Shown here: positions 1-53,720 of the stretch, in pieces | How positions within the stretch are numbered: the stretch's first letter is position 1 | Layout: every line of letters begins with the position of its first letter | Virus record (IMG/VR): IMGVR_UViG_3300025127_000022 | Span: 1-64,000 of that record | DNA: 64,000 nucleotides | Reading direction: 5' to 3' (one strand) | Origin: a virus | Made by a program: the position numbers and the translations under genes | Notes under the pieces: generated by a model | Told to the model about the DNA's origin: nothing | The model's database searches: none | The model's input: the letters and a program-made list of their open reading frames with translations, nothing else

Positions 1-449
1 CCTATAGTAAACACTTAAGTTATATACCTTAACGCAGTTCCTATAATATATAACCATACAGTAAAAGGATACATCCTATATATAATGGTTATACATAAGG
101 AACTTAACAATGACCCTATAGTATAATCCCTAAATTGGAATGTAATTCCTAAGGTAAAGATTAATCCCTCATGGTCCTCGACCATTGGTATCATATTACA
201 AGTGTTATTCGTAAACGTGTACTCACCTCCCAATTGGAATGGACTATGAAATCCTCATTAAATAAGACTAAAATAAAGGTCTAAATAAAAGACCATTGAA
301 GGGTCTTAAACAAGTCCCCCACACTGGTACTTATACATTTTTTTTAATGTCCTTATAGAGGTCCCTAGATACCTTAGAATGTATTATATGGTCTTAGACA
401 CTACCTAAATTAACGTGTTCCTTAATGACCCATAGTTATCGTATACTAT

Positions 450-476
450 TTACCACCTTTTACCACTAATTACCAC
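450..476 (-). repeat. Three TTACCAC (GTGGTAA on minus) direct repeats at exact 10-bp period; MraZ-box-like
   Basis: Copies at 450, 460 and 470. GTGG-N6 triple repeats are the known MraZ operator layout. Confidence 0.6.
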
Positions 477-750
477 ACTATGACACTATGTAAATTCCCT
501 CTAGGGAACTCCTATCTACAAATATACGAATAAATTACGTGTATCACAACACTAGGGGGAATTAGTTAATGGCCGCTAAAGGGATTGTGTCCTCTGCGAC
601 TCACGACTGACATTTTGACAAATCCAAATAATTAGACCACTATTTTAAAAAAGTTTTCAACATGACACCCTGTCAGGGGGAATTTAAAGGGGTACTGCAG
701 TGGGATTTTATATGTACCATAATGGGGACTAAGCATAACCCGCCCTTCCA

Positions 751-923
751 CACCCTAAAGGTACAAAAAATATTTTACATGGCCAAATTTTTATACTGAC
801 AATATGTCCATTGTTAATAACTTTTTTTTTATCAACACCCTATGTTAATAACTCTTAGAGGACCAGACAAATTGTCACCCATTTTATTTGGCCATCTCAA
901 AAAAAAGTGGTACCTTTAGGGTG
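751..923. promoter_or_regulatory. Back-to-back divergent Bacteroidota-type promoters forming an inverted repeat
   Basis: CACCCTAAAGGTAC 751-764 mirrors GTACCTTTAGGGTG 910-923; ATGGCCAAAT 779-788 mirrors ATTTGGCCAT 886-895. Each arm reads TTTG-N20-TACCTTTA. Confidence 0.6.
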
Positions 924-1007
924 GTAGTGGGAGGGAAGTATACTATGGTGAACCCTACACTCTAGGGCAGGTGGTGCCCTCATGGTCTTCCACCACATCT
1001 TATAATA

Positions 1008-1039
1008 TAAAGGTACGAAAAATAAATGAGACTACCAAA
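1008..1039 (-). promoter_or_regulatory. Third TTTG-N20-TACCTTTA promoter-like element
   Basis: TAAAGGTA 1008-1015 and CAAA 1036-1039 on plus, with the same 20-nt spacing. Confidence 0.5.
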
Positions 1040-1323
1040 TTTTAGGACCACTTTCTTACATGACAATATGACAATCCTGCAGGGGGGCTTACATAGGGGT
1101 ATGCTATGGGGATGCAGCCCCTATACTAATACTCTCTCCCTATACCCCCTTATGGGTCCCTGGAGCGGCCCCCTGCCCCCCTGGCTGCTGGCCGTATCCC
1201 CCCTTACTAGCGGCTTTTGAGGGGGTATAATGGGGGGACGGTCCTAAAAAAGAAATGTGCACTAAAAATTTTTTGGGAAATTTTTTTATGAGAATTTGGT
1301 ATTTATTGGGAAACCATATTACT

Positions 1324-3326: not shown

Positions 3327-4238
3327 ATGAAAAATACACTAAAAGAAGAGATTAATAGAATCAATCAATTATTAACTGAACGTGATATGAATGACGCTGC
3401 GATGGACGTTCATGGAGTAATGAGTGACGTTAATGTGAATAAAAGTGAGATAAGTGATATGAGAGGTGAGATAAGTGATATGGATGATATGCTAAACGAT
3501 GTTTTTGGAGATGAGATACGTAATAGGTTTTCTGAAAAAAATGTAGATGATATGTCTGGTGCTATTCACGACCTAGGTGATGCGGCTCAATCTTTAGAAG
3601 ATGCTGAAGATGAATTAGATATTACACATTCACAGTTAGAAGATTTGTATAATAGTTTACACGACATGGGTAAATCAGATTTACGTGATAGTTTAAGTGA
3701 AATGAGATTTGATGGTAAATCTACAGGTTTATTTAGTGATGAAGAAACTACTATGAATGAACTGGAGATTGATGAAAGTCATTGTAGTTCTAAAGATTTA
3801 GATGAAGGACATTGTAGTAGTAAAGGACTAGATGAAGATGAGGAAGAAGAAGTTTCTATGGCAAGAAAAAATAGAGTTCTTAGGAGACCTTATTCTTCTA
3901 GTGCAAAATTTAAAGCTGGTCTTAGTGAACAAGAGAGACCACCACTAGCTTTAGATAGGGAATTAAGTTTCGTTTTAGACGAAATACATGACGATTTATT
4001 TTATACCCTACCTGGACAATTCCAGGAATATAATTTAGGTGAACAAGTACGTCTATATCAAGAATTAAAAAGTAGATTAGATTCGTATCCAGCATCAAAA
4101 TCATTGCCTGAAGTTAAACAAATTCTTGACCGTATGGAATATGACCTAAGTGGTCTAGAAGGATTTAACGAAAGACTAGGTGAATTATTTTATATCTTAA
4201 CTGGTCGATACGAATTTTCTCCTGAAGCTAGAAGATAG
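3327..4238 (+). CDS. Acidic hypothetical protein with leader and internal L-x-E sites (putative internal head protein)
   Basis: Starts MKNTLKEEINRINQLLTE; internal HCSSK-x-LDE duplication. Confidence 0.75.
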   Translation: MKNTLKEEINRINQLLTERDMNDAAMDVHGVMSDVNVNKSEISDMRGEISDMDDMLNDVFGDEIRNRFSEKNVDDMSGAIHDLGDAAQSLEDAEDELDITHSQLEDLYNSLHDMGKSDLRDSLSEMRFDGKSTGLFSDEETTMNELEIDESHCSSKDLDEGHCSSKGLDEDEEEEVSMARKNRVLRRPYSSSAKFKAGLSEQERPPLALDRELSFVLDEIHDDLFYTLPGQFQEYNLGEQVRLYQELKSRLDSYPASKSLPEVKQILDRMEYDLSGLEGFNERLGELFYILTGRYEFSPEARR

Positions 4239-48127: not shown

Positions 48128-48183
48128 ATAATTCAAAGAACTTATATAAATACACCCGATAAATTAAAAAATTTATCTTAGGG

Positions 48184-48260
48184 TAGACGGAATGGGACTT
48201 GAACCCACATGTAACCAGTTACCCTTTCTACAAGGTATAAGCTTGAGGGGATACCCGTCT
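48184..48260 (-). ncRNA. Atypical tRNA-like RNA, anticodon TAT (Ile), with rearranged arms
   Basis: Acceptor AGACGGG/TCCGTCT-A; T arm GTGGG-TTCAAGT-CCCAT; CAAG-CTTATAC-CTTG arm; no D arm at the canonical position. Confidence 0.65.
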
Positions 48261-48268
48261 ATATCTAG

Positions 48269-48342
48269 TACACCCGATAGGATTCGAACCTATGACCTAC
48301 TGCTTAGAAGGCAGTTGCTCTATCCAGCTGAGCTACGGGTGC
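48269..48342 (-). tRNA. tRNA-Arg(TCT)
   Basis: GCACCCG TAGCTCAGCTGGATAGAGC A ACTGC CTTCTAA GCAGT ... GGTTCGAATCC; canonical cloverleaf. Confidence 0.95.
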
Positions 48343-48350
48343 ATGTTGGG

Positions 48351-48436
48351 TACTCGGGGCGGGAATCGAACCCGCACGGACCTCACGGTCCAACAGATTT
48401 TAAGTCTGTCGTGTCTACCTATTCCACCACCCGAGC
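48351..48436 (-). tRNA. tRNA-Leu(TAA)
   Basis: GCTCGGG TGGTGGAATAGGTAGACAC G ACAGA CTTAAAA TCTGT, long variable arm, GGTTCGATTCC. Confidence 0.95.
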
Positions 48437-48459
48437 ATGTTTGTGTGATGATTACAGGA

Positions 48460-48491
48460 CAAATATAGAATATAATTTCAATTAAACCAAA
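48460..48491 (-). promoter_or_regulatory. Bacteroidota housekeeping-sigma promoter for the tRNA cluster
   Basis: TTTG-N20-TATATTTG. Confidence 0.65.
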
Positions 48492-49369: not shown

Positions 49370-49411
49370 TCTTATTTTATTATCGGTAATATTTATTATA
49401 AAACAATAGAT

Positions 49412-51124
49412 ATGCCATTACCAATACCTTTTTATTTAAGAACAAGTCAAAACACAGCACTAACACATGCTCAGTTAGATGGAAACCTTAGTATTTTAAG
49501 TACTAAAATAGATAATACAACCTGTGGGAATATAGGTACAGGGATTGGTATTTTCCAAACTAAAGAAATAGGTAATAATGACGGTTTAATGAATTTACGT
49601 TCATTATCTGGTACTGGAGGTATTCTTATAGGAATAACGGGAGATAGTATCGTAATTGATGGTTCTGGTACAGGTGGTGGTTCTAATTTTTGGGCAGAAT
49701 TCGGGACATTTAATAAAGCTTTAAAAGACGTTAAAGGAACTTATAATACAAGTGGTACTTCCACTAATACATTAATCGCTGGTGGAAGTGGACACACATC
49801 TCACAATACCCTTACAAGTTTTTTCGGTGGTGGTCAAGTTAATAGAATAATTTCTGGTAATACTTCAGCAATAGTTGGGGGTAAATACAATACTATAAAA
49901 GAGGGAGACGGTAATGTTATTATAGGTGGGTCAGGAAATACAATGGGTGACATTAGTTCATGGAATGTAGTTACGGGTCTAGGAAATGAATGTTCTGGGT
50001 CCACCTCTGTAGTTTTTGGAGGACTCCAAAAAAACGGTATTTCAGGAAATACAGTCATCGGTCATGGAAACTTTGTTGAGGGGTCAGGAAATAATATACA
50101 AGCAAATTTTAATTTCGTTTCAGGTACATTTATAGACTCTAAAGCTAACAACATATCTTCATTTGGTTCTAATCATAGAATAAATAATACGGGTGTTCAG
50201 TACACCGATTTTGTGCAAAGTTTTGTTACTGGATTAAATCATATTGTGGGTAGTGATGTACAAACTACTACTCTTTTCGGACAAGCACACCAAATAGGTA
50301 CTATAGTGGGTGAAGAAGGCAAAGAATCTCCAGTAAAAACTTTAATAGCTGGACTATCCAATATGGTTACTGGAGCCACATCAGCATCTTCTATTTTATC
50401 AGGTCAAGATAATAGAATAGGATATGGTTCTGGAACGGTAGTAAATAACTCAGCAATCTTAGCAGCAAAAAACAGTTGTTTAGGTGCTGGAGGAAGAGTA
50501 AGACAGAGTAGTATATTAGCTGGACAAAGTATGTCAGCTTATACTGATGATACCGCTTATGTACAAAAATTACAACCAACAGAAAAAGTTAGAGTTTCAA
50601 GTTATGATTATATATTATCTAATAGTATTACTACAACAGATAGCCCCACTATACATAATGTAGTTCACGACACTAATCACATAGATGCAATTCCTATAAA
50701 TGATGGTGGTGGAGAAATTGTTAGATATGGTTTATGTGCTTCCGAAGAAGTAGTGTACACTGCAGGTCAATTTGTAAATTTAGAAGGTAATGGGTGTTGG
50801 AAAAGAACTGATGTCTCTACAAGTGGTAGAACAGACGGAAGAATGGTAGGTTTCGCCTTATCTAATAGTCCTACTGTTGCGGGAGCAGGTAAAGGTATAT
50901 TAATTAGAGGTCATTTAAAATTACCTAGTTTACCAGAAGGAGCACTACCTGGAGAACCACTCTATTTAGATGCTAGTGTTACAGGAGCTGTTACAAAAAC
51001 ACCACCTGCAAGTTCAGGAAATATAGTAAGAGCGGTAGGTCATTTAGTGGGTGGGCCATCTTTAGACCCAGAACAAGGTTATATGTTCCTTAATCCAGAT
51101 ATAACTTATTTACAAGTTACTTAA
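49412..51124 (+). CDS. Putative tail fibre or virion structural protein
   Basis: N-terminal LTHAQLDGNL; Gly/Ser/Asn beta-helix-like repeats; C-terminal GEPLYL...G.....P...G..VR.VG; TATTTAT 49390-49396. Confidence 0.6.
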   Translation: MPLPIPFYLRTSQNTALTHAQLDGNLSILSTKIDNTTCGNIGTGIGIFQTKEIGNNDGLMNLRSLSGTGGILIGITGDSIVIDGSGTGGGSNFWAEFGTFNKALKDVKGTYNTSGTSTNTLIAGGSGHTSHNTLTSFFGGGQVNRIISGNTSAIVGGKYNTIKEGDGNVIIGGSGNTMGDISSWNVVTGLGNECSGSTSVVFGGLQKNGISGNTVIGHGNFVEGSGNNIQANFNFVSGTFIDSKANNISSFGSNHRINNTGVQYTDFVQSFVTGLNHIVGSDVQTTTLFGQAHQIGTIVGEEGKESPVKTLIAGLSNMVTGATSASSILSGQDNRIGYGSGTVVNNSAILAAKNSCLGAGGRVRQSSILAGQSMSAYTDDTAYVQKLQPTEKVRVSSYDYILSNSITTTDSPTIHNVVHDTNHIDAIPINDGGGEIVRYGLCASEEVVYTAGQFVNLEGNGCWKRTDVSTSGRTDGRMVGFALSNSPTVAGAGKGILIRGHLKLPSLPEGALPGEPLYLDASVTGAVTKTPPASSGNIVRAVGHLVGGPSLDPEQGYMFLNPDITYLQVT

Positions 51125-53659: not shown

Positions 53660-53720
53660 TGTATTTATGTCATACATAACTGACAAAATGTCAGTATTTT
53701 TCTTATGGTATGTTATTTGA
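53660..53720 (+). promoter_or_regulatory. TGACA-AAA-TGTCA palindrome plus sigma54-like TGGTATG-N4-TTGA upstream of dnaK
   Basis: Palindrome 53681-53693; -24/-12-like element 53706-53720. Confidence 0.45.

Follow-up and report, generated by a model that had tools for sequence, protein, structure and literature searches.

Background

Phage control regions and replication origins that carry sites for host factors are already familiar. In phi29, P1 and lambda, sites for host master regulators (the Spo0A boxes of phi29, the DnaA boxes of P1 oriR and the IHF/DnaA sites of lambda) lie beside early promoters or the origin, and the viral programme thereby follows the state of the host. The datA locus of Escherichia coli, which titrates DnaA, is a cluster of DnaA-box-like sites that acts without coding. 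Here we analyse a gene-free island at the left end of 64,000 nucleotides of viral DNA, the first 64 kb of the IMG/VR record IMGVR_UViG_3300025127_000022 (hereafter the window). Like the control regions of phi29, P1 and lambda, the island brings look-alikes of host-regulator sites together with promoters; it differs from them in joining three different host systems in one gene-free stretch.

Several of the host systems concerned have been described. Sigma-A promoters of Bacteroidota combine a -33 TTG with a -7 TAnnTTTG, 19-21 nt apart (PMC9723704), and the published MraZ consensus consists of three GTG(G/T) boxes with 6-nt spacing (PMC12957436). A sigma-54 heat-shock regulon has been mapped in Flavobacterium psychrophilum and in a comparative study (PMC9723704, PMC12316311), and examples of titration by decoy sites come from bacteria (PMC8599769). 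When the literature was searched for MraZ boxes on phages, or for decoy arrays carried by them, nothing relevant turned up, nor did these searches yield any account of a conserved gene-free island in which a MraZ operator occurs with its companion element and with the heat-shock dyad.

The record comprises 76,275 bp, is classed as linear and has a CheckV completeness of 23%, which makes it part of a genome that would measure roughly 300 kb. The low G+C content of the genome (about 0.30-0.32), a 1018-aa phage protein with a T9SS C-terminal sorting domain and a gene set that includes DnaK, a Clp ATPase and a T4-type large terminase together point to a Bacteroidota host. The source is a jumbo phage, probably a 'moraphage' of Flavobacteriia, as its traits fit the 2025 description of that group: aquatic phages of up to 307 kb with Flavobacteriia hosts and chaperone genes and without an RNA polymerase (PMC12619734). 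That description is silent on the island region.

An earlier note, made from the letters of this DNA alone, had read positions 450-1075 as a non-coding array that binds host proteins, and had offered a transcription-factor sponge, a replication origin or a first-injected genome end as its function. We followed this up with pattern counts, comparisons with related phages and comparisons with host operators. That the island works as DNA by binding host proteins is well supported as a matter of sequence mimicry. Our favoured reading, to which we assign a probability of roughly 0.45, is that the island would be a cis-acting hub that gates transcription by the state of the host, with host RNA polymerase and host regulators recruited to it.

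Results and discussion

Four interleaved classes of sites in a gene-free island

The four interleaved motif classes that had been reported for 450-1075 were all recovered in place by pattern counts against shuffles or expectation. The boundaries given for the array were too narrow, as 450-1075 is the centre of a larger gene-free island that spans 1-1288. A scan of 1-1288 found no open reading frame (ORF) above 72 aa. Within 450-1075 none is credible, as had been claimed; the longest has 45 aa, and its counterpart in the close relative L107 contains an 11-nt deletion. The parts of the island are:

1-1288, no strand: the non-coding island itself, its left side cut by the contig end; G+C 0.36-0.38 against about 0.30 for the genome
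453-476, minus strand: three GTGG boxes with 6-nt spacers, a MraZ operator look-alike (GTGGTAATTA GTGGTAAAAG GTGG)
481-493, plus strand: weak dyad TGACACTATGTAA with one mismatch, not conserved in L107 or in the relative G004
519-549, minus strand: promoter e, TTG-N20-TATATTTG, predicted to fire leftward; L107 keeps the -7 box (TATCTTTG) and not the -33 element
578-592, plus strand: family-conserved block AAAGGGATTGTGTCC, with the consensus aAaGGGATTgTccc in 36 modules
605-621, plus strand: core block GACTGACATTTTGACAA, the most conserved block, which contains the dyad TGACATTTTGACA (608-620)
650-662, plus strand: element AAAGTTTTCAACA, identical to an element just before host MraZ boxes and formerly read as the first 'DnaA box'
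663-675, plus strand: perfect dyad TGACACCCTGTCA followed by GGGGG, from the pattern scan allowing at most one mismatch
756-787, minus strand: promoter a, TTTG-N20-TACCTTTA, predicted to fire leftward, with a G-cluster leader
797-877, no strand: spacer (97 nt) that separates promoters a and b, which diverge from it, with dyads at 797-809 and 865-877, boxes at 812-820 (minus), 829-837 (plus) and 843-851 (minus) and a T9 tract
887-918, plus strand: promoter b, TTTG-N20-TACCTTTA, predicted to fire rightward, with the G-cluster leader GGGTGGTAGTGGGAGGG
1008-1039, minus strand: promoter c, TTTG-N20-TACCTTTA, convergent with b and about 100 nt away from it
1061-1073, plus strand: dyad TGACAATATGACA, identical in L107

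Each of the four classes stands well above shuffled or expected counts. The GTGG-N6 triplet, formerly put at 450-476, falls at 453-476 on the minus strand and occurs once in 64 kb against 0.00 in 100 shuffles. Matches to TGACA-N3-TGTCA with at most one mismatch number 8 in 64 kb against 1.8 expected, and the six reported sites (481, 608, 663, 797, 865 and 1061) are six of these eight, with one perfect copy at 53681. Likewise, the four promoters, of the form TTG-N20-TAnnTTT[GA] and located at 549 (minus), 786 (minus), 888 (plus) and 1038 (minus), do share a 20-nt spacer; four in 1.3 kb compare with 0.05 in shuffles of the region and amount to 14 times the genome average in density. The four DnaA-box-like 9-mers are enriched as a local cluster: TTTTCAACA at 654, TTATTAACA at 812 (minus), TTATCAACA at 829 and TTATTAACA at 843 (minus) amount to four in 200 bp where about 0.06 are expected. 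Their agreement with TTATNCACA does not go beyond 7-8 of 9 positions (perfect boxes lie at homologous places in L107 and in the relative G008), and the relaxed pattern TTWTYMACA is at chance across the window, with 18 found against 18.7 expected.

The sites resemble host operators and promoters

For the host side of the comparison we used GTDB Bacteroidia genomes, sampled evenly, with 30 mraZ loci and 30 dnaK loci; the unpublished genome G106 contributed no loci and supports none of the conclusions. Upstream of mraZ, GTGG-N6-GTGG is found in 26 of the 30 loci (1.3 in shuffles) and GTGG triples in 18 (0.01 in shuffles). The 10-nt unit profile of the phage boxes, GTGG[T68/G30]A94 A63 A80 A74 A62, is nearly identical to that of the hosts, GTGG[T50/G38]A73 A61 A76 A63 A59. 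The island thus shares with the MraZ operators of dcw promoters not only three direct GTG(G/T) boxes with 6-nt A-rich spacers (a 10-bp period), but also the combined box and spacer profile. In contrast to the host operator, the phage copy does not lie over an mraZ or dcw promoter: it has no mraZ or dcw genes behind it, it does not overlap a -33/-7 promoter, its boxes falling 36-60 nt downstream from where promoter e is predicted to start transcription, and in most relatives there are two sets of opposite orientation about 300 nt apart. The box count is four in L107, G004 and L112, and in five phage genomes no GTGG[GT]A pair lies farther than 1.5 kb from the module formed by these parts. A search of five phage genomes for an mraZ gene found none.

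The DnaA-like boxes acquire a different meaning next to these operators. Directly before the MraZ boxes, hosts carry GTTTTCAACAA, GTTATTAACAA, TTATCAACA, TTATCCACAA or TTTTCCACAA, and the 13-mer AAAGTTTTCAACA, identical to 650-662, adjoins the MraZ boxes in 8-9 of the 30 loci. On this match the 'DnaA boxes' are copies of an upstream element of dcw promoters and, given the 13-nt identity, may serve a factor other than DnaA. AAAGTTWTYAACA has two copies in the 76-kb record, both inside the island. Perfect DnaA boxes alternate with the dcw upstream element both in hosts and in relatives of the phage: L107 has the perfect box TGTGGATAA at the place of 843-851, and in G008 four of the six perfect DnaA boxes of the whole genome lie within about 1.1 kb of the module. 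With datA the island shares a cluster of DnaA-box-like sites in DNA that would act without coding; in contrast to datA, its boxes agree with the consensus at no more than 7-8 of 9 positions and may be recognised by a different factor. Clustering of the 11-mer AGTTTTCAACA was sought in host genomes and none was found, and hence no oriC repeat is visible there. On the host side itself, a composite recurs at the dcw loci (L288-L317), in which a DnaA-box-like element (ranging from TTATCCACA to TTTTCAACA) adjoins two to four MraZ boxes and a TAnnTTT -7 box comes next. This conserved composite architecture of dcw promoters in Bacteroidia is a by-product of the comparison.

The dyad of the island recurs before the phage dnaK gene:

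53681-53719, plus strand: perfect dyad TGACAAAATGTCA separated by 12 nt from TGGTATGTTATTTG, a -24/-12 promoter of sigma-54 type that precedes phage dnaK, outside the island

The promoter in question is TGGTAT-N5-TTG at 53706, with the dyad only 12-13 nt upstream. Among the host dnaK upstreams, the sigma-54 -24/-12 promoter TGGCA-N6-TTG is present in 26 of 30, and TGWC-N-N3-TGWCA lies at -90 to -155 in 17 of 30 (L255-L284), with 34 hits against 0.49 in shuffles. This layout agrees with the published sigma-54 heat-shock regulon (PMC9723704, PMC12316311) and is the same as that of phage dnaK; each of five phage genomes has the dyad TGACATTTTGTCA ahead of dnaK, of the Clp gene or of both, relatives with such chaperone upstreams being G004, G008, G009 and G010. 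The 13-bp TGWCA-N3-TGWCA is common to the island, to host dnaK and to phage dnaK/clpC, and the island dyads have the form seen at host sigma-54 promoters; unlike the dnaK regulon, the island has six dyads but no -24/-12 promoter. No DnaA or sigma-54 activator gene was found in five phage genomes, apart from Clp cross-hits. As a by-product, TGWC-N-N3-TGWCA emerges as a candidate motif for the regulator of the Bacteroidota sigma-54 heat-shock regulon. When the record was scored with the host dnaK profile, the best sigma-54-type match was GTAATGGCATATCTATTGTTTTA at 49404-49426 (minus strand, score 16), which points leftward at the start of the ORF at 49412-51124.

All four promoters conform to the Bacteroidota sigma-A consensus, three with the -7 box TACCTTTA (7/8 positions) and one with TATATTTG (8/8). 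The TTTGG...GTACCTTTA units are re-read, with TTTG as the -33 element and TACCTTTA as the -7 box. The promoter type is likely to be functional, since it also precedes minus-strand genes and a tRNA cluster elsewhere in the genome (for instance at 48490, 42636 and 28310). Promoter b and its first approximately 35 nt are conserved in L107, G004 and G007. Promoter e reads through the MraZ-type boxes towards a pair of predicted hairpins:

278-307, minus strand: two overlapping terminator-like hairpins, a predicted stop for leftward transcripts; not conserved in L107, where two ORFs are inserted

A perfect TTG-N20-TATATTTG was also noticed at 48460-48490 (minus strand), directly upstream of a cluster of three tRNAs (48182-48437, minus strand).

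A module conserved in related phages

A search with the large terminase recovered 301 related IMG/VR contigs; the relative G004, of 297,623 bp, has a terminase identity of 74%. Other routes to relatives yielded little: blastn of the phage database with 1-1300 and an exact search with the CCAC triplet each gave no match, none were found through the flanking ORFs 1324-1629 and 3327-4238, and a DnaK-based locus search of genome contigs gave only three loci. Short matches in G002 (18-20 kb) proved to be chance occurrences in coding DNA.

The 17-nt core GACTGACATTNTGACAA (605-621) was more productive, matching 71 IMG/VR loci of which about 50 are true homologues, many of them on contigs of 150-320 kb, and at least 36 related contigs carry non-redundant homologous modules. 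Each of the genomes G006, G007, G008, G009 and G010 has a single copy of the core. The earlier note had proposed a comparison with related phages, and the motifs held up in it, as the parts recur at fixed positions across the 36 modules: GTGG pairs at about -77 and -43 from the core in 32 modules, an upstream CCAC pair in 27, a DnaA-like box in 33 and a second dyad in 20, along with the block GGGATTGTCCC, the core and a C5 run, all counts being biased upward and towards the core because the relatives were gathered with a pattern drawn from the island itself. A sub-lineage that comprises this phage, L107, G004 and L112/G007 is marked by CCAC boxes at about -150 (four, or three in this phage) and a core that lacks the adjoining GTGG set.

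The island is conserved beyond its surroundings. When the first 16 kb of the window are compared with the genome of L107 (G006), the island alone matches and the flanks are unrelated; the only aligned segments are 9-207, 299-969 and 976-1287, at 79-86% identity. In 32 of the 36 relatives an ORF of about 95-110 aa starts 60-170 nt after the core (for instance L132:9848-10129:+, L137:2878-3171:+ and G010:34929-35288). It belongs to no Pfam family, and three phages that keep the module (this one, G004 and L107) lack it.

A proposed hub for host-state control and competing explanations

In the reading that we favour, host RNA polymerase would start transcription at the island, transcription that would be largely non-coding in this phage, and its gating would fall to host regulators that govern division, replication and protein stress and would occupy the operator copies. 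The parts at its disposal would be the four sigma-A promoters in divergent and convergent pairs, the three-box MraZ-type operator, the four DnaA-box-like elements of dcw promoters and the six TGWCA-N3-TGWCA dyads. The conservation of the parts, their matches to host operators, the missing phage regulator genes and the lack of an ORF or RNA signal all argue, at the level of sequence, for the binding of host proteins over coding that had been suggested before. If so, the island would be a concrete, conserved and testable piece of programme timing in jumbo phages without their own RNA polymerase (PMC12619734), and the first phage locus seen to copy a host MraZ operator, here combined with heat-shock and DnaA-like sites.

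Several observations weigh against such a hub. The dyads of the island lack a sigma-54 promoter to serve, as a scan of 1-1300 and of the modules of 10 relatives found no -24/-12 promoter (TGGCA-N6-TTG). The promoter cluster is specific to the sub-lineage, other relatives having 0-1 such promoters near the module, and promoter b lacks a conserved coding target: the small ORF of the relatives is missing here, and L107 has no same-strand gene downstream. None of the four DnaA-like 9-mers agrees with TTATCCACA at more than 7-8 of its 9 positions. In the host class, most homologues of the phage Clp ATPase have no dyad before them, and the binder of the dyad could hence be a phage protein. To these points is added the upward bias of the conservation counts.

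A replication origin is the alternative to which we give most room, and we regard it as possible though doubtful. Here the divergent promoters a and b, with their G-clusters, would form R-loops that prime synthesis, as in T4 oriF/oriG or ColE1, the intervening DnaA-like boxes and T9/A8 tracts would make the duplex easier to open, and the other host sites would tie firing to the state of the host. What the island has in common with those origins is a promoter, a G-rich leader, A/T tracts and predicted non-coding transcripts; unlike them it has no support from skew or synteny. A single-copy island conserved beyond its flanks, with boxes at fixed spacing, G-rich leaders conserved in four genomes, promoters that lack a conserved coding target and perfect DnaA boxes in L107 (at 843-851) and G008, would suit an origin. 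However, GC skew, which had been suggested as a check, tracks the strand of the genes and shows no sign change at the module in G008, G009 and G010, a test that is weak in both directions since T4-like phages replicate mostly by recombination. The genes on both flanks share one direction, and replication genes are missing from the 9 kb around the module in G009 and G010 and from positions 1-14 kb of the window, so that neither skew nor neighbourhood lends the origin support; for a T4-like phage all of these negatives count for little. Further, the boxes of this phage are weak matches, the a/b pair is confined to this phage and L107, and T4 origins are not known to be conserved single-copy islands. 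If the island were nonetheless an origin, it would be the first for this phage group. It is unlikely, in our judgement, that the sites are instead bound by phage-encoded proteins (of the AbrB fold, of the helix-turn-helix type, or the roughly 100-aa neighbour protein), with the likeness to the host being convergent or incidental. Most phage genes are without a known family, the dyad preceding phage clpC did not come with the gene, and no host counterpart was found for the block GGGATTGTCCC and the C5 runs, all of which would sit well with phage binders. Yet three independent motif classes each fit a real host operator, down to the spacer preferences and a 13-nt identity, the small ORF is missing from this phage, G004 and L107 where the module is kept, and five genomes contain no member of the MraZ family.

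The sponge of the earlier note corresponds to a decoy, in which amplified operator copies would titrate MraZ together with the heat-shock regulator and whichever factor (DnaA?) recognises the dcw element. Division, replication control and chaperone expression in the host would then be redirected with no protein encoded for the purpose. Such a decoy would amount to a protein-free takeover of the host, and there is bacterial precedent for titration by decoy sites (PMC8599769). The operator look-alikes have no cognate gene, sigma-54 promoter or dcw gene behind them, and as the MraZ operator is essentially unique in each host genome, hundreds of phage copies could matter. But each phage genome has few sites and one MraZ operator, the sites are interleaved with promoters, and the literature searched holds no phage precedent; the sponge is possible as such, but the fixed offsets of the boxes from the core over 30 or more relatives suggest an ordered assembly more than a loose sponge, and make a decoy quite improbable. 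Still less do we expect genes for small non-coding RNAs, with b and c giving a sense/antisense pair and promoter e a leftward RNA of about 230 nt that ends at the hairpins of 278-307. The convergent promoters about 100 nt apart, the terminator-like hairpins, the raised G+C in an AT-rich genome and the promoters without a coding target are what such genes might display; however, an Rfam search of the window and five relatives gave no match, the predicted folds of candidate transcripts are no more stable than those of shuffled sequence (z from -0.8 to +1.6), the spacers of the upstream CCAC and downstream GTGG boxes in relatives do not covary, and in L107 the b/c overlap has received a 144-nt insertion and the terminator region has been replaced. 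Taken together, the missing Rfam match, folding signal and spacer covariation indicate that the sites behave as protein-binding DNA. The faintest of the candidates is the first-injected genome end, where promoters or bound host proteins would pull the DNA in by analogy with T7 and T5. Clustered host-type promoters would serve this purpose, and both this contig and that of G004 break inside the island. The break in G004 has another cause, however: its two contig ends divide the homologous region between them and align seamlessly across the junction to this phage and L107, and its contig is thus a circle opened within a C-run. The module is internal in G006, G007, G008, G009 and G010, three near-complete relatives included, and the idea, drawn from short locus lengths, that the contigs of relatives end at the module was thereby discarded. 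IMG/VR lists no terminal repeats for these records, and a T4-like large terminase usually means headful packaging. We therefore consider an entry end extremely improbable.

Additional features of the island and its relatives

To the right of the promoters lies a further segment:

1076-1250, no strand: segment rich in G-runs and C-runs, kept in L107 (about 86%) and partly in G004; folding z about 0

Runs of at least five G or C show an 8- to 25-fold excess close to the module in five genomes (this phage, G004, G008, G009 and G010); of the 44 such runs in this record, 15 lie there.

Relatives outside the sub-lineage carry a 'middle piece' about 80-350 nt upstream of the core, with the blocks TCGCTGGAA, AAAAAAGTGGTC, CAGAGGGGATTTTTT and ATAGCAACAGGACCAAT, which is absent from the sub-lineage. 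One small hairpin in it shows apparent covariation between its arms (GTCC/GGAC, GACA/TGTC, CACAC/GTGTG); RNAalifold on this piece of the relatives gave no consensus pairs.

L107 departs from this phage at two places. Two plus-strand ORFs (158 and 116 aa; L107:2445-3255) are inserted where this phage has 207-395, and the 144-nt insertion, at 965, brings a fifth TTG-N20-TATATTTG promoter. At the left edge, where 9-207 is 82% identical to L107, positions 1-130 of the window hold four CCTATA(G/A)TA-type repeats, at 1, 42, 75 and 115, spaced 33-41 nt apart. Some of these overlap TATAAT-like hexamers, and CCTATAG-like words recur in the island of G004.

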